Assembly (NCBI GenBank): GCA_041690215.1
Contig: JAWLHQ010000003.1
Location: 330,518 to 394,517, forward strand
Reading direction: 5' to 3'
From: Rhodothermales bacterium
Lineage (GTDB): Bacteria > Bacteroidota > Rhodothermia > Rhodothermales > DASSAV01
Length of the DNA: 64,000 nucleotides
The notes beneath the pieces were generated by a model, which saw only the letters and a program-made list of their open reading frames with translations, did not search any database and had not been told where the DNA came from. Position numbers and translations under genes: made by a program. Positions 1,594-18,492 of this stretch are shown in pieces (position 1 is the stretch's first letter; each line of letters opens with the position of its first letter).

Positions 1594-2406
1594 TCATCCA
1601 GGTTGGCGGGCGTCTGCCATCCCCGCCGCCCATTCGATCCCGCCTAGAATGTGCCGCAGAAAAAGTGGTTCGGAGTAAGATTCCGACGTATGACCGAGCC
1701 CTGTATACCAGGCCCTCCCACCGGCAAATTCATGCGCCCAGGCAATAGGGTGGTCCTGCCCCATCTTTCCACCCTCGTAGGTTTGCTCATCCAGCGTCAT
1801 CAAGACGTGCACATGATCTCGCGGGTTTGAGCGGTAGTTGTACCACTCGTCGAAACGTTCCCAACGCGTAGGCAGGTGCGCCGTCGAGGGATGCATCCGG
1901 TCCACAACATCTAGGATAGCCTGCTGCGGTCTGGGATGCTCGTCGAACCACGCTCCTACGATTTCGCCATAGAAAGGCCAATCGTACTCCCCCGCTGCTG
2001 CCCCGTGAATACCTACGAATCCGCCTCCACCCCGGATGTATGCTTCGAACGCTGCCTGCTCCGCGTCATTGAGGAAATCGCCGCTGGTACTGAGGAACAC
2101 CAGCACCTCGTACTTCCCCAGGCTGTCTGAAAGAAAGATCCTCGAATCCTCCGTCGCATCAACCGTAAACCCGTTCTCGTATCCGAGGCGCCGAATGGCA
2201 CGAATACCGTCCGGGATCGAGTCATGCCGGAATTTCGCGGTCTTGGAAAAGACGAGCACGTCGTAGCGAGGAGACGTTGTCACCGGGACAGCCTGCTCCT
2301 CTGGGCCAACCTCAGAACGCGAACTCGAGCAAGCAGCGATGCTCAGCAGCACCGCGCACAGAAGACCTTGACGAAGGCCACGAAATCTCTCGAGGTATCC
2401 ATGCAT
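1594..2406 (-). CDS. ThuA-domain lipoprotein (trehalose-utilisation-like family)
   Basis: 270 aa ORF with an ATG start. Lipobox LLSIAACSS. ThuA-type motifs VLVFSKTAKFRHDSIP, GGGFVGIHGAA, RFDEWYNYR, HPIAWAHEFAGGRAWYTGLGH. Roughly 60 percent identical (by-eye count) to the ThuA part of the neighbouring 2754..5957 gene. Confidence 0.8.
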   Translation of the reverse strand: MHGYLERFRGLRQGLLCAVLLSIAACSSSRSEVGPEEQAVPVTTSPRYDVLVFSKTAKFRHDSIPDGIRAIRRLGYENGFTVDATEDSRIFLSDSLGKYEVLVFLSTSGDFLNDAEQAAFEAYIRGGGGFVGIHGAAAGEYDWPFYGEIVGAWFDEHPRPQQAILDVVDRMHPSTAHLPTRWERFDEWYNYRSNPRDHVHVLMTLDEQTYEGGKMGQDHPIAWAHEFAGGRAWYTGLGHTSESYSEPLFLRHILGGIEWAAGMADARQPG

Positions 2407-2711
2407 TGGATCCAGGCCGCCAGATCAGTTGTGGGGAAACGATTCACCGGATTCCGCTACGATGCTTGCGAACACCCGCAAGGCAGGTTGCACATCGTAT
2501 AACTACGGGGTGGACTCGTAACGAGAGCTACTCCGGGGAAGTTAACCCGACGTACAGTCTGGTGCCAGAGCCGGAGCACACAAATGAGCAGGGCCGGGAC
2601 GGAGCGGTCAAAATCCTCCAGCATAGAACTGCATACTCCGGCTCTCTCATGCAGGACTATAGTGATCCAACGATACCTCAGGTATACACCCCGGCCTGAC
2701 GCCCTACGAGA

Positions 2712-2743
2712 AGCATCCCGGAGGCTTCTACCTCCGGGATGCT
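2712..2743 (-). terminator. Hairpin directly after the stop of the ThuA-GSDH-CBM gene
   Basis: Perfect 13-bp stem agcatcccggagg / cctccgggatgct with a 6-nt loop, 11 nt beyond the stop at 2754. No clear U-tract, so an intrinsic-terminator function is assumed rather than shown. Confidence 0.5.
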
Positions 2744-2753
2744 TTGAGTCCTG

Positions 2754-5700
2754 CTAGCGCGCGCTTTGCGGTGCATCTGCCACGATGCCTTGCCCGTTAA
2801 ACCGAATCCAATCGAGCGACATAAGCGTGCCTTCACCTGTCCCTTTGAAAACGAGATAGAGGGTCGTCGTACCGCCAGGATCAGTTACGGGAACGGTGAG
2901 GTCGGTCCATCCCTCCGGCACTTGTTCGCCTTCATTGAGGCGGTGCATCTCTTCATCATGCGTCGTTACGTCACCTGCGTCTGCTGACTCTTGTAGCTGA
3001 GCCACAGTCGTATCGACCGGCGCTACCACTACCTGCGCGAGCAAGGATCCGCTCTCGGTACCGTGGCGCACTTCGATGACGCCACCTGCTTCCGGCTTCA
3101 CGCGGAACGTAAGAGATTCTATGTTCAAAAGGTTGACGGGAGCATAAGAAACCACAGCGCCGTTCGTCACGTCGAGCACGGTTTGAGCTTGACCGGCTTC
3201 ACGTTCGTTGCTAAGCGTCCGCCGCTGTGCCCCTTCAGCCGACGTGGCGAATTCAGCCTGTTTGAGGCGCGGCTGTAGCACAATCCGCTGGCGCCCTGTC
3301 AGTGCGGGCGCCCCGTTTGCTCCATCGTCCCGATAGGATGCTTCCAGCAGGACCGCCTGGTTCGTCTTGTAGCGATAGCCATCCGGGTATACGACGAAAG
3401 AGCCCTCCGGTCCGTACTTCCGCTGCAATTCCATCTCGTGCGTGTCCCGCCCCAGGTATGGTTGTACCTCGATTCGTTCCGGCTGAGCAGCATCCGATTC
3501 GGCATCACGGACCGACACCTCGTACCGGATCGGCTGGCCGTAATCGAAGAAGCCACCGTGAACGGGCCAGGTGATCGCAACTTCGGGAGCCGTGTTGCCG
3601 GCCGTGACCGGAATCTCACGGACGGCGGCCAGCCCCGTTGAGCTGGTCACTGTCAGGCGAGCCATGTACTGCCCGGGCCGGGCATAGGTATACGAACCGG
3701 TAGCTGCCGTCGCGTCGATCTGCCCGTCTCCGTCGAGGTCCCACGCATAGGTCAAGCTAGCATCCTGGCTTGTCGTATCCTCTGCGGTCGCCGAGAACCG
3801 GACGTCCAGCGACCCCGCGCCGGCGGGCTGTACCTCGGCAGCGACTACCGGCGGACGATACGGTGAACCGTAATAGTCGAGCCGAACGATCTTCTGCTCG
3901 GGGCGGCCATTGCCCCAGAAATCCGGCCCCCACTCTATCACGTAGAGCCGTCCGTCCGGCCCGAGCTCCATATCCATCGGGCGGAGAAACGTCATTTCGG
4001 TAAAGAGCGGATTGATCTTGAGAATATCGCCGTTCTCGTCCAGCTTGACCTCTTTGATCCAGTTGCGCGCCCACTCATACGCAAGGAATGTGTTATCGAA
4101 GTAAGCCGGGAGCGCGTTGGGGTGCCGCCGTCCTTCGAACCTGTCATAGCGGTATACCGGCCCAGCCATGGCTGTCCGGCCCCCCGCTTCCATTTCGGGG
4201 AACTCCTCCGAGAATCCGTACGGATACCAGATAAAGGCGGGCTGGGCGGGTGGGAGTACGCGTGCACCGGTGTTGAATCGAGAGTCGTTCACCGGGTTGT
4301 TCGGATCAAAGGGTGGACCGGCAGTCTGCGTCTCGAAATCCCAGTCACGGTACGCCTTGTTGTCACCGACGAACAAGGGCCAGCCGTAGTTGCCGGGTCC
4401 CCTCGCCTGCCCGAACTCATCATGTCCCGCCGGGCCACGCTCTTCGTTGGGCGCACCGGCATCCGGACCTACATCACCCCAGTAGAGCCAGCCGGTCTGC
4501 GGATCAATCGAGATCCGGTACGGGTTGCGGTGGCCCATCGTATAGATCTCGGGACGGCCTCCCTTTCCATCCGGGAAAAGGTTGCCCTCCGGGATCGTGT
4601 AGGAGCCGTCCGGTTGCGGTCGTATCCGGAGGATCTTGCCTCGCAGGTCATTCGTGTTGGCGGACGTGCGGCGGGCGTCCCAGGGTTCGCGGCCCGGACG
4701 GTCGTCGATGGGCGCAAAACCATCGGAAGCAAAGGGGTTCGTATTGTCGCCCGTGCTCAAGAACAGGTTACCATCCGGCCCGAACGCCAGTGATCCACCC
4801 GTGTGGCAGCACTCGATGCGCTGCACCGGCACGTCGAGCATGTCCTTCTTGCTGCTCCAATCCAGCTTGTTATCGACGATCGTGAAACGTGAGAGACGGT
4901 TCACCGACTCGGCGCCTTCCGGAGAGTAGTAAAGGTACATCCATCCGTTCTCTTCGAAATTGGGGTCGAGTGTGATGCCGAGCAATCCGTCTTCAATGAC
5001 CTCGTGGACCGGAATGAACCCGACCATGCTGGTCGTGTTTGTCTCGGGATGCCAGACGCGAACCGCCCCACCACGCTCGATAAAGAACACGCGGTTATCC
5101 GGCGCAACTGCCAGTTCGATAGGGTCGGTCACATCTTCCACGAGCACGGTCTTATTGAAGCTGCCCGTCTGTGTCGCCGCTACGTCCGCCTCGACCTGAC
5201 CGGCCACCCACTCCAGCGCGCCGACCAGATGCTGGAGGAACAGCGGCTCGCTATAGCTCTCTTCCGTGTGTCCGAGGCCCGTATAAAAGGCGCGGCCGCC
5301 CCCGAAGTTATGCGCCCACGAGATCGGGTGATCGTGCCCCATCTCTCCCCCTTCGTAGCTCGTCTCGTCCAGTGTCATCAACACATGGACATTTCCGCGC
5401 GGGTTCTCCCGGTAATTGTACCACTCATCGAAGCGGGTCCACTCCTGCGGCAGGTGCTTCGTCGCCGGATGGACACGATCGGCCACCTTGATCGTGGCAT
5501 TCTGATTCTGAGGGTGGCTCTTGAAATAGCCCCCGACAAGCTGGCCGTACCAGGGCCATTCGTACTCAGTGTCTGCCGCTGCGTGTACACCGAGAAATCC
5601 GCCTCCCTGTGCGATGTACTGCTCGAACGCTCTCTCCTGAGCCGCGTTGAGGATGTCGCCCGTGGTGCTCAGGAACACGACCGCATCAAACCGACTCAGA

Positions 5701-5957
5701 TCGTTCGGATTGAAAATGGCCGCATCCTCTGTCGCCTCTACGGCAAAGTTGTGCTGATCACCCAGCTTCTTAAATGCGGCGATGCCGGTTGGGATGGAGG
5801 AGTGCCGGAAGCCGGCTGTCTTCGAAAAGACCAGAACACGATATCGGGGAGCGGCTTCCTGCCCAAGGCTCGTTTGAACGGCCAGCGATCCATTCGCAAA
5901 TACAAGGATCAGCGGCAGCACGGCCCATGTCGTGACCTTACCTGCAAACGCCTTCAT
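2754..5957 (-). CDS. Exported multidomain protein: ThuA + PQQ-type (GSDH-like) sugar dehydrogenase beta-propeller + PKD-like + C-terminal CBM6/35-like module
   Basis: The ORF track gives 2754..6125 (1123 aa). I prefer ATG 5957 (MKAFAGKVTTWAVLPLILVFANGSLAVQT, a signal peptide). ATG 5999 is also possible. The ORF-track start overlaps eboF. Domains read from the translation: ThuA (RYRVLVFSKTAGFRHSSIP ... HPISWAHNFGGGRAFYTGLGH); propeller (IECCHTGGSLAFGPDGNLFLSTGD, LRGKILRIRPQPDGSYTIPEGNLF, YTMGHRNPYRISIDP, NYGWP); PKD-like (YAWDLDGDGQIDATAATGSYTYARPGQYMARLTVT); CBM-like end (TLYLVFKGTGEGTLMSLDWIRFNG). Confidence 0.8.
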   Translation of the reverse strand: MKAFAGKVTTWAVLPLILVFANGSLAVQTSLGQEAAPRYRVLVFSKTAGFRHSSIPTGIAAFKKLGDQHNFAVEATEDAAIFNPNDLSRFDAVVFLSTTGDILNAAQERAFEQYIAQGGGFLGVHAAADTEYEWPWYGQLVGGYFKSHPQNQNATIKVADRVHPATKHLPQEWTRFDEWYNYRENPRGNVHVLMTLDETSYEGGEMGHDHPISWAHNFGGGRAFYTGLGHTEESYSEPLFLQHLVGALEWVAGQVEADVAATQTGSFNKTVLVEDVTDPIELAVAPDNRVFFIERGGAVRVWHPETNTTSMVGFIPVHEVIEDGLLGITLDPNFEENGWMYLYYSPEGAESVNRLSRFTIVDNKLDWSSKKDMLDVPVQRIECCHTGGSLAFGPDGNLFLSTGDNTNPFASDGFAPIDDRPGREPWDARRTSANTNDLRGKILRIRPQPDGSYTIPEGNLFPDGKGGRPEIYTMGHRNPYRISIDPQTGWLYWGDVGPDAGAPNEERGPAGHDEFGQARGPGNYGWPLFVGDNKAYRDWDFETQTAGPPFDPNNPVNDSRFNTGARVLPPAQPAFIWYPYGFSEEFPEMEAGGRTAMAGPVYRYDRFEGRRHPNALPAYFDNTFLAYEWARNWIKEVKLDENGDILKINPLFTEMTFLRPMDMELGPDGRLYVIEWGPDFWGNGRPEQKIVRLDYYGSPYRPPVVAAEVQPAGAGSLDVRFSATAEDTTSQDASLTYAWDLDGDGQIDATAATGSYTYARPGQYMARLTVTSSTGLAAVREIPVTAGNTAPEVAITWPVHGGFFDYGQPIRYEVSVRDAESDAAQPERIEVQPYLGRDTHEMELQRKYGPEGSFVVYPDGYRYKTNQAVLLEASYRDDGANGAPALTGRQRIVLQPRLKQAEFATSAEGAQRRTLSNEREAGQAQTVLDVTNGAVVSYAPVNLLNIESLTFRVKPEAGGVIEVRHGTESGSLLAQVVVAPVDTTVAQLQESADAGDVTTHDEEMHRLNEGEQVPEGWTDLTVPVTDPGGTTTLYLVFKGTGEGTLMSLDWIRFNGQGIVADAPQSAR

Positions 5958-6076
5958 ACGATAGAGGAGTGAGTATGGGGTGATGGCAAATCGTGGCATT
6001 GTGTCTAGCAAAGCGCTTTCAGAACACCCAGGCACCTTGCCTAGAACACGGTGAGGGAAGATACACATTCCCCGCC

Positions 6077-7465
6077 TTATGCACGCGACGGTGCGCCCAG
6101 AAGATGAGAAAGGATTGCGCCGCACACGTCGGTAGGCATCAACCGCTCTTTTTCGAGCAACTCCGTCTGACGTGTAATAAAGAGCGGACCGTCTTTCTCC
6201 ATATCCGGCAACCGGCCATGCGAGCCGCGAACCAGTTCTCCGTTTAGCGGAATGACATCCAGAAGGTATCGGAATCCCAGCTTCTTCTGCAGCAGGCGCA
6301 GCCCTGCTTTCAACTTCGGGGCCCGGAGGTTGGGGTCGATGAACAGCTCCGCCGGATCGTAACCGGGCTTTCGGTGAATATCCACCGTCGGCGCGAAGTC
6401 GGGGGCCCGGGCATCGTCCAACCAGTAGTAATAGGTAAACCAGGCATCCGGCTCGGCGATGGCGACCAGTTCACCGGCCCGGGGATGATCCAGCCCATAA
6501 GCCCGCTTCCCCTCTTCATCCAGTACCTGTTCTACGCCAGGCACGGACGCGATGAGTTCCCGCACGGCCTGAAGCTGACCGGGATCGTTCACGTACACAT
6601 GCGCGACCTGGTGATCCGCCAGGGTGAATGCCCGGCTCGCTCCAGCGTCGAGCAACTCCCGTCCCAACTCTTCCCTCACGGCAATGTATCCGTGCTCGCG
6701 CAGCACCCGATTCAGCGAGACGGGCCGGGAGACGGGCGTGATGCCGTATTCGGAGAGCACGATTACCTGTGCGCCCCGGCTCTCGTAGAACGTGATCAGT
6801 TCCTCACAGACGGCATCTATATCCCGCAGGTCCTGCTCGACACGCGCATCATGGGGACCGTAGCGCTGGAATCCGTAATCCAGATGTGGAAGGTAGATCA
6901 GAGTCAGTGTCGGGTTGTACTCCTCATCGACCATCATGGAAGCATTCGCGATCCAGCGTGAAACGTCAATAGAGGTACCTGGCCCCCAGTACTTGAACAA
7001 GGGGAATTGCCCGAGCCGCTCCTGAACCCGGGGACGCAGATCTGCCGGATGCGTGTAGATATCAGGTAGTTTGCGCCCGTCAGCCGGGTACATCGGCCGA
7101 GGCGTCATGGAGTAATCGACGCTGGAGTACATGTTGTACCACCAGAACATGTTGGCGCACGTGAACGTGGGGTCCAGCTCTCGCGCATGCTCCCAGATCT
7201 TGGGTGCCTGTACCAGCTTGTTCGACTGCCGCCACAGCTTGACTTCGCACTCGTCCCGGAAGTACCACCCGTTACCTACGATCCCGTGCTCCGATGGCAT
7301 CACGCCCGTCATGTATGTCGCCTGGGCTGAGCACGTCACAGCCGGGAGCACACCACCTACCGGCGTGGTCTTTCCCTGCCCTGCCCATTTCGTCAGAAAC
7401 GGTGTATGCGCTCCCAACAACCCGGGCGTCAACCCCACAACATTCAACACGACCGTCTTTTTCAT
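6077..7465 (-). CDS. eboF: EboF: alkaline phosphatase / nucleotide pyrophosphatase superfamily protein
   Basis: 462 aa with an ATG start. Motifs VVGLTPGLL, LPAVTCSAQATYMTG (nucleophile-type region), IYLPHLDYGFQRYGP, RGSHGRLP. It occupies the last position of a six-gene cluster whose families and order match ebo. Confidence 0.8.
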   Translation of the reverse strand: MKKTVVLNVVGLTPGLLGAHTPFLTKWAGQGKTTPVGGVLPAVTCSAQATYMTGVMPSEHGIVGNGWYFRDECEVKLWRQSNKLVQAPKIWEHARELDPTFTCANMFWWYNMYSSVDYSMTPRPMYPADGRKLPDIYTHPADLRPRVQERLGQFPLFKYWGPGTSIDVSRWIANASMMVDEEYNPTLTLIYLPHLDYGFQRYGPHDARVEQDLRDIDAVCEELITFYESRGAQVIVLSEYGITPVSRPVSLNRVLREHGYIAVREELGRELLDAGASRAFTLADHQVAHVYVNDPGQLQAVRELIASVPGVEQVLDEEGKRAYGLDHPRAGELVAIAEPDAWFTYYYWLDDARAPDFAPTVDIHRKPGYDPAELFIDPNLRAPKLKAGLRLLQKKLGFRYLLDVIPLNGELVRGSHGRLPDMEKDGPLFITRQTELLEKERLMPTDVCGAILSHLLGAPSRA

Positions 7466-7528
7466 TCCAGACTACCTACAATCGAAATGCACAACTTACC
7501 TGATAGGAGATGGTGAGACCGGAATGTT

Positions 7529-8743
7529 TCATTGCCCTTCCTTGCCCTCTCGCATCCGCTTATCGAACTGCTCCAACACCCATTCATACTCCCTGCTGAT
7601 AGACTCCGTAATGTCTACTTTCAACTCGGGCGGCAACACATCCCACGTATAGGTTTCAATCTCGAAATGCGGGCAAATGCGTTGCGGAATCACCTCGTCC
7701 AGAGTGGCCGTAATGTCATACTGCGTCGAGCCGAGCTTGCCGTAGTGATCCACGAAGATGGGCACGTGATAATGGATACGCCACTCCTCGGCTTCTGCAT
7801 CAAGGATATTGTACACCGCCCTGGGGAGGTCGGAGTAGTGACCCAGCGTGCCATCCGGCCTGCGCTCGATGACCTGATGCAAGTACGTGTGCTCGGCAAA
7901 TGGATCGAGGAGTTCAACGACCTCGTGTCGCCCTTCCTCACTCTGAGGTATCGGAATCCTCAATGCTGAGCTGATCTGGACTTTCCCTACCTTGATTCCG
8001 TTCTCCGCGAACTGCTCGAATACGACATCTGGCTGCTCGTACTCGACGGCGAAGTGGCAAGTATCGTAGCAGACCCTGATGTGGTCCTGCAAGTCATCCA
8101 CGATCAGCATGTTGCCACTCTTGGGCAGGAGCACGTCGTTGAAAAAATGAATGGTCTCAGCCAGGTTCTCGATGAGGCAGTCCGGCTCGGGTTCGATATC
8201 GATGTGGATGAGCTTATCCGTCCGTTCCCGCAGCCGAACCAGTTCGGCCGTAACCTGCTCCAGATGAATGGCACCCAGTTCCAGCGCCTCGTGCCGCTCT
8301 CCTACCGCGAGCCATGGCTTGTAGGAGATCGGTGACGTGGAAATGCCACCTTCCATTCCCTCCGGCAATAGTTCGGCCAGGATATGGGCAAGGCGAACCG
8401 TGTAGTCCACCCGCTCCTGCGTCCGCCAGTCCGGCGCATAGACATGGTCCTTCACGATTTGCCTGTGGAAGCCGCCATACGGGAAGCCGTTCATCGTGAA
8501 GACATACATCCCGTTCGCATCGAGCCAATCTTTGAACCGGGGCAGTTCGTCACCTTCAAGGATCTCGCGCGATGCCAGATCGGAAAGCCGGAGCCCGATC
8601 CCGAACGGCTCGTCCGGTGAAAGCCGGGTCTTCAGCGCGCGGGTGTAGACGTCGAGGTTACGAAACACCTCATCCCACCGCTCACCCGGATGAATGTTGG
8701 TGCAGTACGTGAGATGGAAGAATCCGTCCGTACCGATTTGCAT
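7529..8743 (-). CDS. eboE: EboE: xylose-isomerase-like TIM-barrel protein
   Basis: The ORF track gives 7529..8818 with a GTG start. I prefer ATG 8743, which gives MQIGTDGFFHLTYCTNIHPGERW, the short N-terminus I recall for EboE proteins. The extra 25 codons are encoded by the REP-like hairpin at 8775-8807. The TIM-barrel family call rests on overall similarity as remembered and on synteny. Confidence 0.75.
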   Translation of the reverse strand: MQIGTDGFFHLTYCTNIHPGERWDEVFRNLDVYTRALKTRLSPDEPFGIGLRLSDLASREILEGDELPRFKDWLDANGMYVFTMNGFPYGGFHRQIVKDHVYAPDWRTQERVDYTVRLAHILAELLPEGMEGGISTSPISYKPWLAVGERHEALELGAIHLEQVTAELVRLRERTDKLIHIDIEPEPDCLIENLAETIHFFNDVLLPKSGNMLIVDDLQDHIRVCYDTCHFAVEYEQPDVVFEQFAENGIKVGKVQISSALRIPIPQSEEGRHEVVELLDPFAEHTYLHQVIERRPDGTLGHYSDLPRAVYNILDAEAEEWRIHYHVPIFVDHYGKLGSTQYDITATLDEVIPQRICPHFEIETYTWDVLPPELKVDITESISREYEWVLEQFDKRMREGKEGQ

Positions 8744-8774
8744 ACCTTCTCTGGCTGATGTGTCTTCAAAAAAT

Positions 8775-8807
8775 GCAATGGGGCACACCGGTGGTGTGCC
8801 CCATTGC
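8775..8807. repeat. GC-rich palindromic hairpin (REP-like) in the eboD-eboE spacer
   Basis: Perfect 15-bp stem gcaatggggcacacc / ggtgtgccccattgc with loop ggt. The core CACACCGGTGGTGTG is shared with the hairpin at 33778-33798. Confidence 0.8.
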
Positions 8808-8814
8808 GGCCATT

Positions 8815-9996: not shown

Positions 9997-10081
9997 TCCT
10001 TCTAGTTGCCGGGGGTTCTAATGTCCTGCTGATACACGGCGCCCTCACCAGTCCGTCCTTACCCCACGTACATACAAATGT

Positions 10082-11011
10082 TTATGTTACTGCAAACGCT
10101 TTGGCGAGCAGAATAGAAAAAACGAGCAGGACCGCCGTTACAAGCCCGATTACCCACCCCCCGAATCCTGCTGCAAGCGTTGCGTCCATCAAAATGAGGG
10201 AGATAACCCCTCGTTTCACGGCAGCTCGTATGTGCCCTGCCTGAGGATCCACGGCCGCCTGAATGAAGGCCGGTACGACGGCTATCGTGAAAACAAGCAA
10301 AAAGGGTACCGCCCGAATAATCTCATATTCGGGGATAACGCCCAATCCGAGCAATCCAATAATGACCAGTACAACAAACACCAGTGACACGATTACCGTA
10401 CGCCGCTGTCCACCGTGAACTTCCCCTCGGCTCACGGTGGTCACAGCCGCGATGTAGAGCACGGGCAAGATCGCCAGAAACCACAACTGCCCGACCATAA
10501 CGGGAACAGCGCTCACGCCGAGCAACAGATTGCCGCCCCGGCACATCCCCATGTTCACCGGGCCCAGAATCGAATGATGTTTCCCGTATATGTCATACGT
10601 GACGACCCACAGAGCAATGGCAAACGCGATTCCGGCACTGAGCATCGAAACCATAGCTGCGGCAGCTATACCGATGAGCAGCAGTATCGCTCCCAGGATC
10701 CCCGCATTCCGGCGCGACACACGCCCGCTCGGGATGGGTCGTTCCGGGCGTTCAGTCGCATCCAGTGCCGCATCGAAGTAGTCGTTGAGCACCACTCCGC
10801 CTCCGTACAGCCCGGCTGTCGAAAGGAGCAACCACATCAGCGATGGCAGGAGGTTCGCCCCAGTCTGCGTCCCCAGTAAGGAGACCGCCCCTGAAGCCGC
10901 GAAGCCCGCAAGAATATCGGCCAGCGCGGTCACGATGTTGGCGGGCCGCATCAATTCCAGGTATGCCCGTACCCGTGAACGTTTCGGCTGAACGGCTTCT
11001 TTCATCGACAT
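10082..11011 (-). CDS. eboC: EboC: UbiA-family prenyltransferase
   Basis: 309 aa, hydrophobic throughout (about 8-9 predicted TM segments by eye). Asp-rich prenyltransferase motif VVLNDYFDAALD. Confidence 0.85.
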   Translation of the reverse strand: MSMKEAVQPKRSRVRAYLELMRPANIVTALADILAGFAASGAVSLLGTQTGANLLPSLMWLLLSTAGLYGGGVVLNDYFDAALDATERPERPIPSGRVSRRNAGILGAILLLIGIAAAAMVSMLSAGIAFAIALWVVTYDIYGKHHSILGPVNMGMCRGGNLLLGVSAVPVMVGQLWFLAILPVLYIAAVTTVSRGEVHGGQRRTVIVSLVFVVLVIIGLLGLGVIPEYEIIRAVPFLLVFTIAVVPAFIQAAVDPQAGHIRAAVKRGVISLILMDATLAAGFGGWVIGLVTAVLLVFSILLAKAFAVT

Positions 11012-11117
11012 CGGTCAGTAGTCAGTCGTCGGTTGCGCGTGGTCGACTGCTTCGAGGGACGATACCAGCACCGGGGTTGGCACGCTGCCCTCCAACCGGC
11101 CATGGGCAACGGACCAA

Positions 11118-12047
11118 TCACTTGATGATCAACGAATCCTTATCTCTCGCCGGCATTCCCGGCTCCCGGCCTCCGCGCAGCACCGTATTGCCATTGTAGA
11201 GTTGCCGCTGGTCGATAGCAGGCGGATTGAGCCAGTCGTCCTCCTTCATCTGTCCACTCTGACCATAGGCAGCAAGAGCGTTCCCATAAGTCACCTGCCG
11301 CACGTGCTCTTCGGGAATACCTCGCTGCAGCATGAGTGTCGCCGTCTTTGGTACGGCCAGAGGATCACTGATCCCCCAGTCACATGCACTATCTACAATG
11401 ATGCGCTCCGGACCATACTTACGCACGATCTCCGTCATGCGCTCGTTACCCATCTTTGTGCTCGGGTAGATACTGAAGGCGCACCAGAACCCCCTGTCCA
11501 GCACCTCATGCACCGTCTCTTCGTTGTTGTGGTCGATGATGACCCGAGTAGGCTCCAGGCCATGCTCCAGGCACACGTCCATGCTGCGGCTCGTACCCTG
11601 CTTCTTATTTCGATGGGGAGTATGGACCAGCACCACCATGTCCAGTTCCTTTGCGAGTTCGAGCTGTTGCCGGAAATAGCGGTCCTCCAGTTCCGTCATC
11701 GCATCGTAGCCGATTTCCCCAATAGCGACCACACCCTCCTTGGCTGCGTAAAGAGGAAGCAACTCCATCACCTCTTCCGCCAGAGCCTCATTATTGGCTT
11801 CCTTCGAGTTCAGGCCGATCGTCGCATAATGCCGAATACCGAACTGCCCGGCACGAAACCGCTCCCAGCCGACGATCATGCTGAAATAATCCTGGAATGA
11901 CCCCGCATTCGTGCGCGGCTGTCCGAGCCAGAACGCCGGCTCGATTACAGCGACTACCCCTGCCGCCCGCATGGCCTCATAGTCGTCCGTCGTCCGCGAA
12001 ACCATGTGGGCGTGCGGATCGATGAACATCATGTTTTCAACTGTCAT
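11118..12047 (-). CDS. eboB: EboB: TatD-family metal-dependent hydrolase
   Basis: 309 aa. Amidohydrolase/TatD signatures FIDPHAHM, VLVHTPH, IIVDSACDWG. Confidence 0.85.
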   Translation of the reverse strand: MTVENMMFIDPHAHMVSRTTDDYEAMRAAGVVAVIEPAFWLGQPRTNAGSFQDYFSMIVGWERFRAGQFGIRHYATIGLNSKEANNEALAEEVMELLPLYAAKEGVVAIGEIGYDAMTELEDRYFRQQLELAKELDMVVLVHTPHRNKKQGTSRSMDVCLEHGLEPTRVIIDHNNEETVHEVLDRGFWCAFSIYPSTKMGNERMTEIVRKYGPERIIVDSACDWGISDPLAVPKTATLMLQRGIPEEHVRQVTYGNALAAYGQSGQMKEDDWLNPPAIDQRQLYNGNTVLRGGREPGMPARDKDSLIIK

Positions 12048-12279
12048 GGCTCTGAAGCTACTCTAAACCTGATCCGATATTGCCGAAGTGGAAAAGCTGT
12101 CCGGACGAAACGATTCCCGTTCAAAAAGACGTGGCAAACGTTCGCACCGTCACCGATCACGCCACGTGGTGACGACCTGATGCTCTCCACCATGTCAGTA
12201 TACGCAGGCACGTGAGCCTACACATGGCCTCACCGCTTTCCTACGTGGATATTCAACGAAGTCCCGTCCATATTTCCGC

Positions 12280-13176
12280 TCACCCTACGCTCCGGCTCAG
12301 GCTCTCCCACGTCAGTTCGCCCCGCTCAATACGCTGCAGCAATTCAGGCTGCGTCGCAAGAACGTCCGATGCTTCGGGTACACGGGCATGAGAAAGCGCC
12401 AGCGCTGCCGCTTGCCGGTGCAATGGATCGTCCGAAGCTAGTGCACGCTCCAGATCCTGTATGCCGCGCTGATCCGAGAACGGTCCGACGAGGCGCCACA
12501 ACTCCGGCGTGAACGTCCGCGAAGCGGCCCAACGTTCATGTACGTAGTCCAATAGCATACGCGCAAGCTCGGGGTTTGCACGCCAGTCCAGGCCCGCGAT
12601 GCGATGTAGGGGACTCCCTACAAATACCGCCTTCAGGACGAGCTGATTCCATGCCTGTTCGTCGAAATAATCGGCCGGAAATGGGTTCTCGAGCGCTACC
12701 GCATTGAATACGGCATCAATGCTGCTTCGCAAGCCCTCCTCCGCTCTCGGTACGAAGCGTTCTGGATAGGGCAGAAGTGGCAAACTCTGGTACAGGGCGA
12801 CCTGCTCACCCACATCGGCCGCAGAAAACAACCGGTCGAGCTTCTTGACGTAAGCGTCGGCATCACCTGGTGGAATGGCCAGCACAAGCAGGGTGCGCGC
12901 GGCCTGATCAACACTCCACCCTTGCGGGTGCCAGCCGGACCGGACGCGATCGGCTTCGCGCTCATCATCCGCCGACAAGTTCAGATCGGCTTTGCCGGTA
13001 TAGCGAGGCACTGCGCTGAATGCCGTGAAGAAAACGCGATCCGGTGCCCCCTCCTCGATCTGCTGCCGTTTCTCCTCCAGCCAGCGCTGGCCTTTCTCAT
13101 CTACGAGCGGGCGAATCCAGCGCAGCAGCAGATCGACCACGAGAGACGTATCTGCCTGTGATGTCGCTCCAGTCAT
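12280..13176 (-). CDS. eboA: EboA-like protein (no known catalytic motif)
   Basis: 298 aa with an ATG start. It is the first gene of the cluster. I recognise no motif, so the call rests on position, size and the identity of the five downstream genes. Confidence 0.65.
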   Translation of the reverse strand: MTGATSQADTSLVVDLLLRWIRPLVDEKGQRWLEEKRQQIEEGAPDRVFFTAFSAVPRYTGKADLNLSADDEREADRVRSGWHPQGWSVDQAARTLLVLAIPPGDADAYVKKLDRLFSAADVGEQVALYQSLPLLPYPERFVPRAEEGLRSSIDAVFNAVALENPFPADYFDEQAWNQLVLKAVFVGSPLHRIAGLDWRANPELARMLLDYVHERWAASRTFTPELWRLVGPFSDQRGIQDLERALASDDPLHRQAAALALSHARVPEASDVLATQPELLQRIERGELTWESLSRSVG

Positions 13177-13248
13177 ATATCACCTGTAAATCTTCGGACT
13201 GCCCGTTGTACGTAGTACACCGGGGCAAAAGACGCTAACCATGAACGG

Positions 13249-13280
13249 AAAAGGGGCGGGCAACCTGCCCGCCCCTTTTT
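13249..13280 (-). terminator. Rho-independent terminator after the cytochrome c gene (A/T tracts on both sides, potentially bidirectional)
   Basis: aaaa ggggcgggca acc tgcccgcccc ttttt: a 10-bp GC stem, 3-nt loop and a U-tract on the minus-strand transcript, 18 nt after the stop at 13298. It separates the cytochrome c unit from eboA. Confidence 0.75.
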
Positions 13281-13297
13281 ATCAGAGAGAATCTCGC

Positions 13298-13864
13298 TCA
13301 GTCAGCTGACGGGATCCCTTTGTTTTCATCCTTCTTCAGCTCCTCAGCGGTCCAGGGCTGCTTCCGGTCCTTGGTCGCAGCACGGACCTTTGCAACGTCC
13401 TCTGCAGAAATGGCCGAAGCCTGGTTACCCCAACTGCTACGAATGTACGTCGCAAGCGCGGCGATCTCGTCATCCTTCAGGGCCGCTCCCCAGGGAGGCA
13501 TGACGCCGTTATACGTATAGCCCTTCACTTCAACCGGACCGGACATCCCGTTCATGATGATACGCACGAGCGTACCGGGATCGCCCGTCACGTGATCAGA
13601 ACCGGCAAGCGGCGGGAAAACACCTGTGACACCAGCCCCGTTCATCTGATGGCAGGAGCCGCACCGGGTAGCGTAGACCTTGGCGCCGTCTGGCGGAGCG
13701 GCCATTGCCGGGATTGCACCGATCCACCCGTGTTCCGATTCCGAACTGGCAGCCTGAGTGTTTACCAGCGGATGCACTGTCTGTACAGCAAAGAACACAA
13801 GTAAGACGGCAGAAAGGCAAAGCCCTCCACGCATGATGCGTTTGTAAGTGACTGGCTGGCTCAT
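13298..13864 (-). CDS. Class I c-type cytochrome, mono-haem, membrane-anchored or exported
   Basis: 188 aa. N-terminal hydrophobic segment LCLSAVLLVFFAV, a single CGSCH haem motif and a GVMPPW distal-Met region. Confidence 0.85.
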   Translation of the reverse strand: MSQPVTYKRIMRGGLCLSAVLLVFFAVQTVHPLVNTQAASSESEHGWIGAIPAMAAPPDGAKVYATRCGSCHQMNGAGVTGVFPPLAGSDHVTGDPGTLVRIIMNGMSGPVEVKGYTYNGVMPPWGAALKDDEIAALATYIRSSWGNQASAISAEDVAKVRAATKDRKQPWTAEELKKDENKGIPSAD

Positions 13865-14033
13865 ACAAAGTACCAGAGATTGAGTGAGAAAACCTGTTCC
13901 GTGTAGTTGCTTCAGGTGTAGCCCTTAGCCCTTCAGGACCTCTTTCCACCGCGCCCGGGCTGTACAGGAAGCGCTACTTTCAAATAGCATTCCCACATCG
14001 GCACCATGGTCATAGCAACACCCATCAGCAGAT

Positions 14034-14068
14034 CCGCCATCGGGCACGTTTATCTTGCCCGATGGCGG
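14034..14068 (-). other. Intercistronic hairpin between the dehydrogenase fusion and the cytochrome c gene
   Basis: 13-bp perfect stem ccgccatcgggca / tgcccgatggcgg with a 9-nt loop and no U-tract. Possible mRNA processing, stability or attenuation element. Confidence 0.35.
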
Positions 14069-14086
14069 AAATGTACAACAAGCTAC

Positions 14087-17000
14087 CTATTTCCCCGAAC
14101 TTGCACCAGCGCCTGAGTTGGCGCTCGTCTGGCTGGCTGGCGCATTGTCGTCACTGATCCAGCGGTACCGGGTTACCTTGGCATTCGGGCCAGGTCCCCA
14201 GAATCCGTCGAACTCGGCCACGTAGAGCGTGCCGTCCGGCGCCAACTCCATCGAAATCGGCGTAGTTTCCGGCAATACATCGAACAGTTTGATGTTCGTG
14301 AGGCGCTTGGCCGGTACTTCGATCGAGTACGGGTAAGCCTTCACGCTGCCCGTCGTGTCGTTCGTCCACGTACGGTCCTCGACGTCGGCCCACTTGATCC
14401 AGCGGCGCGCCCAGTCGAAGACGAACACCTTTTCCTGGAATGCTGCCGGGAAAGCATATTCGCCATCAGACCGGTAGATCGGGCCAAACGTCGCCGAACG
14501 GCCACCTGTCGCGTAGGTGTACTCCCACATAGAGGGCGTCCAGTTCGGTATCATCTCGGGCTTCCACTCGTTGTAGAGGAGCTTCCCGTTATCGCGCGGC
14601 CAGCCGAAGTTCTCACCGCCCTTCATGGATACGTTGTATTCGTCGTACGTGGTGACTTCGTCCGGGCCTACTACGCCGATGTATACGTATCCGGTCTTGT
14701 CATCGACCTTGAACCGGTAGGGGTTGCGCAGACCATACGCATAGATTTCCCAGCGGACGCCCGGCTGTCCGAAGAACGGGTTGTCCTTCGGGATGGAGCC
14801 ATCCTTGTTGATGCGAAGGATTTTGCCGCGCAGTTCCTGGAGGTTCTGCGCCGTACGCTCCGAGTCCACAAGCCGCGACCAGTGATAGCCGCTCAGGTTG
14901 TTCTTCTCGACAAACGCCTGAACCTCCTCCTCGCTCACACCATCCTGTGGCCGTACGGAGGACTGCCCGGTATCGCCCGTGGAAACGAACAGCGTGCCGT
15001 CCGGTCCCCACTCGAGGTCGCCCGCCTGGTGGCAGCACGCAGGCTCCGTCGGAACGCGCAGGAGCACGGTCTCTGTGGACATGTCGAACTTGCCGTCGCG
15101 GAATTCAAACCGAGACAGCGTGTTGATGAACGTCTCCGGCTCGGCGTAGAACACATAGACGTACGGCTGGCCGTTGTAGAACTCCGGATCGACTTCGATG
15201 CCGAAGAGGCCATGCTCGATGTTCACCGGATCTGTGGTGTTGATCTTGGCCACCTCCCGCGTCTGGCCAGTGGCCGCATCGTACAGAAGCACTCTGCCCG
15301 TCAGTTCCGCAATCCACACATTGCCACGCTCATCCACCGCAATATCATCCGGCCACACGTTATCGACAATGACTTCTTTGATGCGCTGGCCAGAGAAATC
15401 GGCAGGAATGCGACCTGCAGCCATCCGAATGCCCTGCAGTACATGCTGGAGGAAATCCGGCTGCTTCCAGTTGTCAGCGAAATGACCGAGCTTGGTCACG
15501 AATACGCGTCCGCCGTTGTGCTTGCGGATCCAGGAGATCGGATGGTCATTGCGGCCGATATCGGCAGGTCCCTCCACGACGCCCACGCTCTCCATGTCCA
15601 GCGACAGGAGCACACGTGAGTTCCAACGCGGGTTCTCGTCCAGCGTATAGATCTCATCGCGAATGCTGAATGACTCACCCAGGTGCTCGGTCGCGGGATT
15701 ATCCGTCTCCTCAACGACGATCTCGACGTGCTGGGTCCAGGGATGTTCTTCGAACAACCCGCCGCCGACCATCTCCTTGTATTCGTCCCATCCGTAGAAG
15801 GCATCCAGGCCTGCGTGCGCGACGGCTATACCTTTACCCTGGCGCAGGAAGTCCATGATGGCCTGCCGCTGGGCTTCCGTGACGAGCACGGTTCCTTCCG
15901 GAATACCCGCAGTCCTGGTGCCATCATGATACGTGCCCGTCAGAGCGACTTTATTGTCGCCGAACACGACTTCTCCTTCCAGCTTGTCGCCGACAACATT
16001 GGCCTGTCCTTTAAACTGACCTTCATTGCCGAATGCGAAGGTCAGCTTATCGTTTTCAAATGTAACGTCCCGTAGTTCAGCCTCATTCCCGCCATCCCAG
16101 GCAACCGAGGCGGTATATGCTCCCGGCTCGCCGCGCAGGACAAGCTTACCCGTCCTGTTACCCCGTGAGGAGTTCATCTGTACATCCCACGTGGCCACGA
16201 CACCAGGAATTGCCTTGTCTGCCTTAATACGCAGAGTCGAGTTATTAAAGAAGAGAACGTCGTACTTCGCGAGGTTCTGCGCGTTGAGATCGTTCACATC
16301 CTCAGTGAAGTCGAACTCGAACTCCGTCGTCGTCTCGATCTCTCCCAGCACCCGGGTTGCCGTCTCAATAGCATCCTTATGACGGAAACCATGCGTCGCC
16401 GTCACCACGAGAACATTGATCGGATCGGCCTGTGTGTTCGTGCGGAAGACATCCGCCAGCGTTTCCGGCCCGCCCTCAGGGAGCGGCATTACGCGAATGT
16501 TGCGGTACCACACCTTCGAGAGGTCATCATGGTTCTGCAAACCGATATACCCCTGGCGACCACGGTTACCGATGAAGTCATTGACCTTCTCGCCATTGAG
16601 ATAGATCTGATAGCGCTGGCCGCGCACTTCGATCCGGTAGGTATTCCACTCTCCCGCCGGCTTGGAGGCTTTCTTCAGTGGCGCCTGGAAGCTGTACACC
16701 GAGCCGGTAACGTGCAATGGATCCTGGCTGTCGTCGATCTGGATTTCGTATCCGTTGTTGACGGCATACCAGGGGTCATCCGTCTTCTCGGGGAAACGCA
16801 CAAAGATGCCGGCGTTGGCTGAGTCGGTCGCTGCCTTCCAGTCGAGTTCGAGGACAAAATCCTTGAATGGCCGCGCCTCGTAATAGAACAGGCCCATTCC
16901 GCCCCGGCCCAGGATGGAGCCATCAGCCTGCTGTTCAAAGTGGCCCGGACCTGCCTGGGTCCAGCCTTCGAGGCTGCTTCCGTCGTAAAGCGTCACCCAC

Positions 17001-17110
17001 TGGTTCACATCCGGATCGCTTGAAGCCTGCTGCGTTCCGGCACACCCGGCCCATACCAAGGCCACCATCAGCACAAGCGCGGGACCGGCAAAGAAACGTC
17101 TTGTATTCAT
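14087..17110 (-). CDS. Exported lipoprotein fusion: DUF1080 (3-keto-disaccharide-hydrolase-like) + ThuA (with internal insert) + PQQ-type (GSDH-like) dehydrogenase propeller
   Basis: The ORF track gives 14087..17125 with a TTG start. ATG 17110 gives MNTRRFFAGPALVLMVALVWAGCAG (lipobox). DUF1080-like: WVTLYDGSSLEGW, YEIQIDD, NTYRIEVRGQRYQIYLNGEKV, GYIGLQNH. ThuA: VLVVTATHGFRHKD ... HPISWIRKHNGGRVFVTKLGH. Propeller: EPACCHQAGDLEWGPDGTLFVSTGD, LRGKILRINKDGSIPKDNPF, YAYGLRNPYRFKVD, ENFGWP. Confidence 0.8.
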   Translation of the reverse strand: MNTRRFFAGPALVLMVALVWAGCAGTQQASSDPDVNQWVTLYDGSSLEGWTQAGPGHFEQQADGSILGRGGMGLFYYEARPFKDFVLELDWKAATDSANAGIFVRFPEKTDDPWYAVNNGYEIQIDDSQDPLHVTGSVYSFQAPLKKASKPAGEWNTYRIEVRGQRYQIYLNGEKVNDFIGNRGRQGYIGLQNHDDLSKVWYRNIRVMPLPEGGPETLADVFRTNTQADPINVLVVTATHGFRHKDAIETATRVLGEIETTTEFEFDFTEDVNDLNAQNLAKYDVLFFNNSTLRIKADKAIPGVVATWDVQMNSSRGNRTGKLVLRGEPGAYTASVAWDGGNEAELRDVTFENDKLTFAFGNEGQFKGQANVVGDKLEGEVVFGDNKVALTGTYHDGTRTAGIPEGTVLVTEAQRQAIMDFLRQGKGIAVAHAGLDAFYGWDEYKEMVGGGLFEEHPWTQHVEIVVEETDNPATEHLGESFSIRDEIYTLDENPRWNSRVLLSLDMESVGVVEGPADIGRNDHPISWIRKHNGGRVFVTKLGHFADNWKQPDFLQHVLQGIRMAAGRIPADFSGQRIKEVIVDNVWPDDIAVDERGNVWIAELTGRVLLYDAATGQTREVAKINTTDPVNIEHGLFGIEVDPEFYNGQPYVYVFYAEPETFINTLSRFEFRDGKFDMSTETVLLRVPTEPACCHQAGDLEWGPDGTLFVSTGDTGQSSVRPQDGVSEEEVQAFVEKNNLSGYHWSRLVDSERTAQNLQELRGKILRINKDGSIPKDNPFFGQPGVRWEIYAYGLRNPYRFKVDDKTGYVYIGVVGPDEVTTYDEYNVSMKGGENFGWPRDNGKLLYNEWKPEMIPNWTPSMWEYTYATGGRSATFGPIYRSDGEYAFPAAFQEKVFVFDWARRWIKWADVEDRTWTNDTTGSVKAYPYSIEVPAKRLTNIKLFDVLPETTPISMELAPDGTLYVAEFDGFWGPGPNAKVTRYRWISDDNAPASQTSANSGAGASSGK

Positions 17111-17128
17111 CTTTTCGAGCTCCAAAAA

Positions 17129-18007
17129 TTAACGACTGACCAGCCCGGCCGACTCCGCCTCACGCAGGGCCGTATACAGACCGCCTTCCATCTTTTCCGG
17201 TTCTACGGTACCGTCGTTGTCGGCATCCACGCCATTCAGGTACTTTTCGATGAGACGGGTCATATCGGCAGCATGCTTCCGAGCCATTTCCACGTCCCCC
17301 TCATAATCCGTCTTCATGATATTGACGGCTTGGGAGTAGGCCTCGTAAAGCCAGCCCGTATCAGCTGTGGAGTTCCAGAACTCCGGCGAAGAAGTCCATT
17401 CTTCGGTCAGGCTGATGCGGGGCTGGCGCTCATCCCCTTTCAGCCCAACACGCAGCCGCATCCAGCCAATAACATTGTTCAGCGATGCAGCGATGCGCTC
17501 GGCACGCTGCCGGTCTGCAGCCGGAGTGTTTTCATCTTTGGCCAGCGCTTCCAGGTGGTCACGCAGGTAACGCGCCCGTCCTGCAATTCCCAGCTTCTCA
17601 GGATCCGTAATGGTGGGCGGTTTCGTGCCGTAACGAGCAGTCCACATGGAGTCGAACTCGGCCCCGCTCGTCTGCCACAGCACCTTCCACCCGTGTGCCG
17701 GAACGTCACCGAACGGCTCGGCCTCAACCATTCCCGACTTCATGCCCCAGACGGTCTCAAAAACCTGGTCGGCACCTGCCTTTACCTCTTCAACGGTTGT
17801 TGCTTTCTCGGCGGCACGACTGGCTGCTAGCGCCTGTTCACCGAGCTTCACTATATCCTGTAGATATGCTCCGGCATCAATCTGCGAAGCCTGCGCAGAG
17901 GTCAGATTCAGGTGTCCGCCGGCTCCCCAGAGGAGCCCTACCAAACTCAGGATGGCAACGCGTGAGCGTACACCCCCACCTCGTGTGATTGGTTGTGTCA
18001 TGTCCAT
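17129..18007 (-). CDS. Hypothetical exported, probably all-helical protein with a C-terminal EF-hand-like loop
   Basis: 292 aa with an ATG start. Signal-like segment VAILSLVGLLWGAGG...SAQA. Ala/Glu/Arg-rich helical composition. A DADNDGTVEPEKME (DxDxDG-type) loop lies near the C-terminus. Its stop is 18 nt upstream of my preferred start (17110) of the next gene (3 nt from the ORF-track TTG start at 17125). I recognise no family. Confidence 0.5.
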   Translation of the reverse strand: MDMTQPITRGGGVRSRVAILSLVGLLWGAGGHLNLTSAQASQIDAGAYLQDIVKLGEQALAASRAAEKATTVEEVKAGADQVFETVWGMKSGMVEAEPFGDVPAHGWKVLWQTSGAEFDSMWTARYGTKPPTITDPEKLGIAGRARYLRDHLEALAKDENTPAADRQRAERIAASLNNVIGWMRLRVGLKGDERQPRISLTEEWTSSPEFWNSTADTGWLYEAYSQAVNIMKTDYEGDVEMARKHAADMTRLIEKYLNGVDADNDGTVEPEKMEGGLYTALREAESAGLVSR

Positions 18008-18459: not shown

Positions 18460-18492
18460 AGCCCCCTCACCTCGAGTCGAGACGAGGGGGCT
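18460..18492 (-). terminator. Rho-independent terminator of the aminotransferase gene
   Basis: agccccctc ... gagggggct stem with an inner ctcga/tcgag stem, followed on the minus transcript by UUUUUUGUUG. It lies 34 nt after the stop at 18526. Confidence 0.7.

Follow-up and report, generated by a model that had tools for sequence, protein, structure and literature searches.

On the minus strand of a 64,000-nucleotide stretch of DNA from a Rhodothermales bacterium (contig JAWLHQ010000003.1, positions 330,518 to 394,517; this whole stretch is called the window below), the six genes of an eboABCDEF cluster lie between genes for exported proteins that combine ThuA, GSDH and further domains into putative dehydrogenases. 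Upstream of the cluster stand Unk292, Fus1 and the cytochrome c gene CytC, and downstream of it lie Fus2, a gene for a stand-alone ThuA lipoprotein and the beginning of a gene for a SusC-like TonB-dependent receptor (Table 1). This gene order and these domains had been proposed from the nucleotide sequence alone (the original prediction), and all of the genes named there were recovered on the minus strand in Pfam and NCBIfam scans. The signal peptides and lipoboxes described for their products can likewise be seen by eye in the translations, with IAAC and WAGC lipoboxes in the solo ThuA protein and Fus1, respectively, and signals of the Sec type in Fus2, Unk292 and the SusC-like receptor. The question addressed here is whether the neighbourhood reflects a functional link between ebo and periplasmic oxidation, and the comparison of many loci points to an association that is restricted to a few lineages.

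Table 1. Features of the ebo region, in window coordinates, listed in the direction of transcription.
Feature	Position	Strand	Description
Unk292	17129..18007	-	Exported protein, predicted all-helical, no family; first gene of the Unk292-Fus1-CytC module
Fus1	14087..17110	-	Lipoprotein with DUF1080 (157 bits), ThuA (150 bits) and GSDH (124 bits) domains (Pfam)
Hairpin Fus1/CytC	14033..14069	-	14-bp stem, z -4.4 (folding), inside a 222-nt spacer
CytC	13298..13864	-	Mono-haem cytochrome c, PF00034 and PF13442, single CGSCH motif, N-terminal signal or anchor
Hairpin CytC/eboA	13249..13279	-	Terminator-like: A-run, 14-bp GC stem, UUUU; z -3.05
eboA	12280..13176	-	NF035937, 343.8 bits (cut-off 320)
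eboB	11118..12047	-	TatD-like hydrolase, Pfam TatD_DNase; 76-86% identity to EboB of other ebo loci
eboC	10082..11011	-	UbiA-type prenyltransferase, NF035940, 395.4 bits (cut-off 250)
eboD	8815..9996	-	DHQS-like sugar-phosphate cyclase; Pfam DHQ_synthase and DHQS_C; NF004852, 589 bits
eboE	7529..8743	-	Xylose-isomerase-like TIM barrel, NF035939, 497.8 bits (cut-off 250)
eboF	6077..7465	-	Alkaline-phosphatase / nucleotide-pyrophosphatase family, Pfam Phosphodiest, 207 bits; 78-83% identity to EboF of L136 and L135
eboF-Fus2 spacer	5958..6076	-	119 nt, no significant structure, z -0.30
Fus2	2754..5957	-	Sec-exported; ThuA (281 bits), GSDH (148 bits), PKD and CBM6 domains (Pfam)
Hairpin after Fus2	2711..2744	-	15-bp stem, z -4.9, weak U-tract
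Solo ThuA lipoprotein	1594..2406	-	Pfam ThuA, 268 bits
SusC-like TonB-dependent receptor	1..979	-	N-terminal 326 aa in the window, CarboxypepD_reg-type start; runs off the window edge

Because EboA, EboC and EboE surpass the curated NCBIfam equivalog cut-offs, the cluster can be regarded as canonical, and its genes are all co-directional in the order A-B-C-D-E-F, with spacers of 63-232 nt. Two gene starts required attention. The eboE open reading frame (ORF) reaches back to a GTG at 8818, while the ATG at 8743 agrees with homologues; a 404-aa, 99% identical EboE (P0001) and other matches cover 92-94% of the long ORF, and translation most likely begins at 8743, as in P0001. Fus2 belongs to a long ORF (2754-6125) that overlaps eboF and likely starts at the ATG at 5957, with the signal peptide directly after it. 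The flanking dehydrogenase loci had been described as paralogous, a description that stands in so far as Fus1 and Fus2 are related; at only 35% identity, they are to be seen as ancient paralogues. The solo ThuA protein and the ThuA domain of Fus2 share 63% identity.

The GSDH domains (PF07995) of Fus2 and Fus1 score 148.4 and 124.2 bits, respectively, against a cut-off of 25, and align to structures of soluble glucose dehydrogenase (sGDH) and other soluble aldose dehydrogenases with E-values of 1e-19 to 1e-26. The NCBIfam threshold for TIGR03606 is not reached (90.8 and 83.1 bits, cut-off 434.55), and both domains are related to that curated subfamily without belonging to it. Aligned to 1C9U, they keep the catalytic His144, the HRN motif (Arg228/Asn229), the GP calcium site (Gly247/Pro248) and GNYGWP; the alignment excludes the C-terminal ligands of pyrroloquinoline quinone (PQQ), which we take to be Lys377, Arg406 and Arg408 of sGDH, and a dependence of Fus1 and Fus2 on PQQ is predicted from motifs alone. 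The three ThuA domains (PF06283, cut-off 33.4; solo ThuA, Fus2 and Fus1) reach 268, 281 and 150 bits, and the DUF1080 domain of Fus1 (PF06439) reaches 156.6 bits against 26.8, its enzymatic activity being putative. DUF1080 proteins have been shown to hydrolyse 3-keto-trehalose and other 3-keto-disaccharides, and ThuAB has been described as a periplasmic cytochrome-c-dependent dehydrogenase (PMC8121099). A ThuB-type GFO_IDH_MocA partner gave no match among the window ORFs or in Pfam scans of the window genes. Genes of this ThuB/inositol-dehydrogenase family do occur beside or near ebo genes elsewhere (L082:5663-6805, with a twin-arginine translocation (TAT) signal; L090:2999-4342; L064:3812-5155; L081:13456-14805). 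Neither pqq genes nor further copies of the ThuA, GSDH and DUF1080 domains were found within the 64-kb window.

The division of these genes into transcription units was judged by folding, with z-scores for candidate hairpins, because a scan for promoter and terminator consensus sequences gave counts no higher than in shuffled sequence. Strong hairpins were found at four sites, namely the three of Table 1 and one at 18460-18492, a canonical terminator (15-bp stem, then TTTTTT) behind a class I/II aminotransferase gene (18526-19743) that lies just upstream of Unk292. The strong terminator foreseen at the end of the upstream unit, the absence of a hairpin between eboF and Fus2 and the hairpin behind Fus2 all bore up under folding. 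The spacer between eboF and Fus2 resembles the spacers within ebo, which are equally unstructured (z +0.1 to +1.2), and strong hairpins occur only at the two ends of the stretch from eboA to Fus2. An equivalent stem and U-run occupies the same position between CytC and eboA in L090, a locus of a sister metagenome-assembled genome (MAG). This pattern suggests two units, Unk292-Fus1-CytC and eboA to eboF with Fus2. In the latter, eboABCDEF and Fus2 would most likely be transcribed together, between the hairpins after CytC and after Fus2, the second of which is likely the end of the unit; this co-transcription is predicted from the hairpin pattern. The former would be transcribed apart from ebo and end at the conserved terminator. 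The hairpin between Fus1 and CytC is as strong as those named in the original prediction, which had missed it, and it may serve in attenuation or RNA stability. It is not considered a functional divider, because Fus1 and CytC are fused in other species, and a hairpin by itself is no proof of a functional boundary.

The upstream genes form a conserved block of their own. The window Fus1 is identical to P0241, which is present on 48 public contigs, and its family comprises 357 members at E<1e-30, several of them with a cytochrome c fused to the C-terminus. Scanning metagenomes with an alignment of Fus1 yielded 44 loci, ranging from 45% to 70% GC, and the Unk292-Fus1-(CytC) block recurs in almost all of them, usually without ebo. 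CytC lies downstream of a Fus1 homologue in at least 15 loci, and the cytochrome is fused to the Fus1 homologue in L098, L101, L102, L107 and L111 and in P0332, P0338, P0349, P0357 and P0359. Because the block recurs and such fusions occur, the cytochrome can be considered a dedicated partner of Fus1, as had been proposed, and CytC is the predicted electron acceptor of Fus1. In ~27 loci, a homologue of Unk292 immediately precedes a Fus1 homologue, and the spacer between the two genes in the window is 18 nt. Unk292 gave no match to Pfam, NCBIfam or PDB profiles beyond a sole, insignificant PqqD-like one (E=0.13), and a single-sequence AlphaFold (AF2) model is of low confidence (pLDDT 50). It represents a conserved exported family without a Pfam entry, in whose alignment many Trp, His and Arg residues are invariant and whose genes always immediately precede DUF1080-ThuA-GSDH genes. 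A conserved gene downstream of the block was sought and rejected, as the next gene differs between loci; in ten loci it encodes a gluconolactonase (twice), an aldo-keto reductase, a FAD enzyme, an AMP-binding enzyme, a redoxin or an unknown protein (four times). Judged by gene order, Unk292-Fus1-CytC is a widespread, self-contained putative periplasmic dehydrogenase module that is normally independent of ebo. Within Fus1, Pfam matches the ThuA domain in two stretches because a poorly conserved insertion of ~130 aa (residues ~290-410, window ~15900-16250) splits it. A shorter Fus1 subfamily of ~908 aa (P0288, L132) lacks this insertion.

When the search was run outward from the dehydrogenases, four more organisms (L090/L136, L082, L132 and L141) proved to have ebo genes next to homologues of Fus1, CytC or Fus2, in different arrangements. 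The closest Fus1 homologue, P0242 (69% identical), lies in L090, in the sister MAG, which is listed by NCBI as 'Rhodothermales bacterium', and the order there is Unk-Fus1-CytC-eboA-eboB. A second locus of the same MAG, L136, reads eboE-sulfatase-FGE-eboF-Fus2'-GSDH/CBM6-SusC, in which Fus2' is 63% identical to Fus2 and has no ThuA domain, the GSDH-CBM6 protein takes the place of the solo ThuA, and a CarboxypepD_reg protein stands in the position of the SusC-like receptor of the window. The genes inserted between eboE and eboF of this locus (L136:1084-3690) encode a sulfatase and an FGE-sulfatase. L082, from an organism of 65% GC, encodes the closest non-self Fus2 homologue (P0122, 58% identical); its order is Fus2>eboC>eboD>TAT-exported GFO_IDH_MocA, with <CytC<Fus1 on the opposite strand. 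In L132, a DUF1080-ThuA gene without GSDH is directly followed by eboA>eboB>eboC. The most informative arrangement is that of L141/L137, where eboE-F-A-B-Fus2-eboC-DUF7133/HEAT-eboD-Unk-Fus1-CytC run on a single strand, with gaps of 71 and 43 bp beside Fus2; an alpha-L-fucosidase gene closes this cluster, and one also adjoins a Fus1-like gene in L138.

These loci do not form a tight clade, and simple recent shared ancestry was rejected as an explanation for them. The Fus1-like genes come from different subfamilies (by closeness, the window Fus1 takes 75th place for the L132 gene and 51st for that of L082), and the identities of Ebo proteins between linked loci lie at the same plateau as their identities to cyanobacteria, which implies that the linkage is either deep or arose more than once. 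For Fus2, a deep single origin is possible. All ebo-linked Fus2 genes (window, L136, L082 and L141) fall inside an 11-member clade among 121 homologues, and the two unlinked homologues that were checked, P0123 and P0126, both fall outside it. In a chance model of 43 non-redundant dehydrogenase-fished loci with 278 kb of flank, the expectation is ~0.15-0.2 encounters with ebo, against 3 observed (Poisson P ~1e-3), with L141 additional to these. From these comparisons of gene order and homology, the association between ebo and the dehydrogenases is real, lineage-restricted and resistant to rearrangement. It is not described in the literature searchable here; the 2016 survey of ebo clusters left inserted genes unanalysed (PMC5133447), and no neighbours of the ThuA, GSDH, cytochrome c or PQQ kind are mentioned in that survey or in the 2026 thallusin preprint (bioRxiv 10.64898/2026.05.21.724671).

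The cluster ranks among the most widely distributed in bacteria, and its chemistry is only partly known. EboD is reported to form a cyclitol from mannose-6-phosphate (in work cited in PMC12904256), EboC prenylates a hydroxyquinoline (trihydroxyquinaldic acid), and the ebo genes determine the production of thallusin, an algal morphogen, by a pathway that leads to a saccharoquinoline/thallusin-type metabolite and contains one oxidative rearrangement step without an assigned enzyme (bioRxiv 10.64898/2026.05.21.724671). In Nostoc, where ebo has been tied to the delivery of a compound to the periplasm, the cluster lies next to a pathway that depends on it and whose last step is a periplasmic oxidation by ScyE; the monomer accumulates in different places in ebo and scyE mutants, from which the authors read an export defect (PMC6282210). 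On the strength of these two precedents, the ScyE oxidation and the enzyme-less step of the thallusin pathway, the window dehydrogenases may be regarded as candidates for a periplasmic step on the ebo product. The explanation favoured here, to which we give about an even chance, is that a few lineages, that of the window among them, recruited exported β-propeller dehydrogenases to the ebo cluster; Fus2 would be a seventh operon member with an ebo-derived metabolite as its periplasmic substrate. It is the foremost candidate for this role, which Fus1 and CytC possibly share. Fus1 would join DUF1080 and ThuA domains to a quinoprotein-type, sGDH-like propeller and pass electrons to its own mono-haem cytochrome c, with Unk292 as a conserved exported partner; this neighbouring, separately transcribed module may or may not take part. 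The most plausible action is an oxidative tailoring step with electrons delivered to cytochrome c, and both the substrate and the chemistry assigned here to Fus2 and Fus1 are conjectural.

A number of observations weigh against such a recruitment, beginning with the neighbourhoods of ebo at large. An EboE alignment was used to collect 80 ebo loci from species-representative genomes, each with at most 10 kb on either side of eboE. Cyanobacteria account for 35 of them and other phyla for 45, including 5 Rhodothermales, 7 Balneolales and ~25 Bacteroidota. The Ebo proteins of the window are 50-86% identical to those of these loci, and among the matches listed none of their EboE proteins exceeds 58% identity to that of the window. 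Neighbour families were scanned with single-sequence and iterated hidden Markov models, and matches were verified by Pfam. Genes for ThuA, GSDH/DUF7133, DUF1080 or cytochrome c proteins are present in none of the 35 cyanobacterial loci and in 7-8 of the 45 others, the remaining 37-38 having no such neighbours; they are likewise missing from all 5 Rhodothermales representatives and from L087 and L088, two extra MAG loci reached through close EboE homologues. Such genes account for 6 of 150 first and second neighbours and 4 of 256 more distant genes (Fisher p=0.12). A general enrichment of ThuA, GSDH and cytochrome c genes near ebo, raised in the original prediction and run here as a check, is thus not significant and is rejected as a rule, and since most ebo clusters lack the dehydrogenases, these lie outside the core ebo pathway.

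Other adverse points concern the linked loci themselves. The conserved terminator stands between CytC and eboA, most Fus1 modules lie in unrelated contexts, and the Fus2 orthologue of the sister MAG has lost its ThuA domain. The linked loci were fished with the dehydrogenases and are possibly related phylogenetically, and every one of them is a metagenomic contig of uncertain taxonomy. Moreover, the CBM6 and PKD domains of Fus2, the SusC-like receptor and the sulfatase and fucosidase neighbours point to glycan substrates, not to a small meroterpenoid. Of the functional link originally suggested, the part that would have applied to ebo clusters in general falls away, and what is left is its support in restricted lineages, where four further organisms, varied gene orders, the interleaved L141 cluster and the Fus2 clade argue for it; the idea, also raised in the original prediction, of Fus2 as a co-transcribed seventh gene agrees with the hairpin pattern.

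The same observations can be accommodated by supposing that there is no functional link at all, which we consider possible but on the doubtful side. The dehydrogenase genes belong to large, mobile, paralogous families that abound in Rhodothermota and Bacteroidota, and a few related lineages would merely have inherited their position next to ebo as synteny, with local reshuffling; Fus1 and CytC would oxidise periplasmic sugars or 3-keto-glycosides, and Fus2, ThuA and SusC would form a locus for glycan uptake and oxidation. The non-significant general enrichment, the conserved terminator between CytC and eboA, the occurrence of the Fus2 architecture in thousands of proteins from many phyla and the glycan-related CBM6, PKD and SusC-like features all fit this view, as does the autonomy of the mostly ebo-free Unk-Fus1-CytC module, whose gluconolactonase neighbour in 2 of 10 loci suits aldose oxidation. 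It accounts poorly for a linkage that persists through full scrambling of gene order, including an interleaved co-directional cluster with gaps of only 43-71 bp, for linked Fus1 genes from different subfamilies, for a small Fus2 clade in which every member of known context is ebo-linked, and for at least 3 observed encounters where ~0.2 would be expected by chance. A different kind of coupling, which strikes us as unlikely, would be ecological or regulatory: the genes would form an island of bacteria living on algae or plants that co-regulates an ebo-derived signal, a thallusin-type morphogen, with the harvesting of host glycans by the CBM6 dehydrogenases, ThuA, DUF1080 and SusC, joined in relatives by sulfatase and fucosidase, and the ebo product would not be acted on by the dehydrogenases at all. 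The reported role of ebo in thallusin production speaks for this, together with the CBM6 and PKD domains of Fus2, the SusC-like receptor downstream in both the window and L136, the sulfatase and FGE-sulfatase of L136 and the alpha-L-fucosidase at the end of the L141 cluster and beside the Fus1-like gene of L138. Among the linked loci, however, it is Fus2, Fus1 and CytC that are conserved, and not SusC, sulfatase or fucosidase, and such neighbours are lacking from many verified ebo carriers.

The dependence might also run in the reverse direction, an idea to which we give only a very slim chance. The ebo product, as a hydroxyquinoline-2-carboxylate meroterpenoid capable of forming an o-quinone, would here be a periplasmic redox cofactor or mediator for propellers of the GSDH, DUF7133 and ScyE types, in organisms that lack PQQ synthesis. 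Circumstantially, this agrees with the prenylation of trihydroxyquinaldic acid by EboC, with the need for ebo in the ScyE-dependent periplasmic oxidation of Nostoc, with the variety of propellers that adjoin ebo (Fus1/Fus2; DUF7133-HEAT-cytochrome c in L030, L031, L053 and L060; DUF7133 in L038 and L141) and with the lack of pqq genes in the 64-kb window. That lack covers the window only, however, and pqqA-E may lie elsewhere in the genome; the sGDH-type PQQ and calcium-site motifs of the GSDH domains are compatible with ordinary PQQ, the different location of the monomer in Nostoc ebo and scyE mutants was read by the authors as an export defect, and general neighbourhood enrichment is not significant. 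A broader form of the idea, in which the prenylated, PQQ-reminiscent ebo product, placed on the periplasmic face of the membrane, would be either a cofactor or mediator or an obligatory substrate of the exported propellers (Fus1, Fus2, DUF7133-HEAT-cytochrome c and, by extension, ScyE), is highly improbable as well. If it were true, it would explain the repeated recruitment of propeller genes to ebo, the lost periplasmic oxidation of Nostoc ebo mutants and the missing oxidative step of the thallusin pathway.

Should Fus2, with or without Fus1, indeed act on an ebo-derived metabolite, the linked lineages would supply concrete candidates for the periplasmic steps of a widespread and partly solved pathway, and a first physiological context would be gained for two very large fusion families, DUF1080-ThuA-GSDH and ThuA-GSDH-PKD-CBM6, and for the Unk292 partner. 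Should the adjacency be synteny only, the Unk292-Fus1-CytC trio would still be defined as an autonomous conserved module, and ebo neighbourhoods in general would still be shown to be without a dehydrogenase signature.

The survey of ebo loci brought to light several other variations in their gene content. The loci that do carry dehydrogenase-related neighbours are the Balneolales loci L030, L031 and L060, with DUF7133-HEAT-cytochrome c genes with or without DUF1080; L057, also of Balneolales, with ThuA; L053 (Pontibacter), with DUF1080 and DUF7133-HEAT-cytochrome c; L038 (Abditibacterium), with a DUF7133 gene immediately upstream of eboC; L081 (Chitinophaga), with a tandem DUF1080 protein; and L063, with a weak DUF1080 match. 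A membrane protein of the TMEM220 family (PF15071), which is not found in the window, adjoins ebo in four unrelated loci (L058:3745-4152, L059:12700-13125, L063:5369-5812 and L141:3297-3692), in the last of which its gene lies 17 bp upstream of eboE, and it is possibly an accessory ebo gene. No eboC was detected between eboB and eboD on the Rhodothermales chromosome L037, where a Fic/DOC-DUF4172 gene lies in the gap (7353-8456), nor in the equivalent gap of L044, L046 and L047. Exported propeller genes of the FG-GAP/UnbV_ASPIC family are located between eboE and eboF of a Balneolaceae MAG (L031:11270-13518), and a member of this family also neighbours a pair of cytochrome c and Fus2-like genes in L083. 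The remainder of the window is housekeeping in character (Era, phosphoglucomutase/phosphomannomutase, PFK and RelA, besides two more TonB-dependent receptors), and an Rfam search of the window found no structured RNA. The phosphoglucomutase/phosphomannomutase gene (30403-31812) lies 17 kb from ebo, whose EboD has mannose-6-phosphate as its reported substrate; it is probably a housekeeping gene. The SusC-like gene at the window edge is a 993-aa fragment on L001, where the contig then ends.

Compared with canonical eboABCDEF clusters, such as the eustigmatophyte/bacterial operon, the EDB cluster of Pseudomonas fluorescens and the proposed thallusin genes, the window holds all six genes in A-F order and differs in that exported ThuA/GSDH dehydrogenase genes flank it on both sides, with Fus2 probably in the same unit; in L141, the departure extends to dehydrogenase genes interleaved among the ebo genes. 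The propellers themselves keep the sGDH motifs that the alignment covers and so resemble soluble PQQ aldose dehydrogenases (Acinetobacter calcoaceticus sGDH, 1C9U; Escherichia coli Asd/YliI, 2G8S; the Thermus enzyme, 2ISM), from which they are set apart by fusion to ThuA, DUF1080, PKD and CBM6 domains and by their partnership with a c-type cytochrome. A sGDH-fold quinoprotein with a carbohydrate-binding module and a dedicated cytochrome is also found in the fungal AA12 PQQ-dependent pyranose dehydrogenase, a eukaryotic enzyme whose cytochrome is of the b type and whose binding module is CBM1, and which contains neither ThuA nor DUF1080; we know of no link between that enzyme and a secondary-metabolite cluster.

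With the 3-keto-glycoside pathways of rhizobia and Agrobacterium (ThuAB) and of Bacteroides thetaiotaomicron (BT2156-2160, with the DUF1080 hydrolase BT2157), the window has high-scoring ThuA and DUF1080 domains in common, whereas it lacks the ThuB/GFO_IDH_MocA protein that is present in L082 and L090, and its ThuA domains are fused to a quinoprotein-type propeller. The 'membrane-bound dehydrogenase' known from the Planctomycetes-Verrucomicrobia-Chlamydiae (PVC) group (DUF7133-HEAT-cytochrome c; TIGR02604) likewise couples an exported β-propeller to haem c, and its genes adjoin ebo in L030, L031, L053 and L060, with a DUF7133-HEAT gene between eboC and eboD in L141. None is present in the window, where TIGR02604 matches Fus1 and Fus2 weakly (27-29 bits, cut-off 122). 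The scytonemin locus of Nostoc punctiforme differs from the window in its scy genes, which the window lacks, having exported ThuA/GSDH fusions and cytochrome c instead of ScyD/E/F; the NCBIfam ScyE_fam model gives weak, sub-threshold matches to Fus1 and to the DUF7133 protein of L141. The two loci are alike in that ebo stands beside genes for exported proteins of the β-propeller type, which in Nostoc carry out a periplasmic oxidation (PMC6282210).

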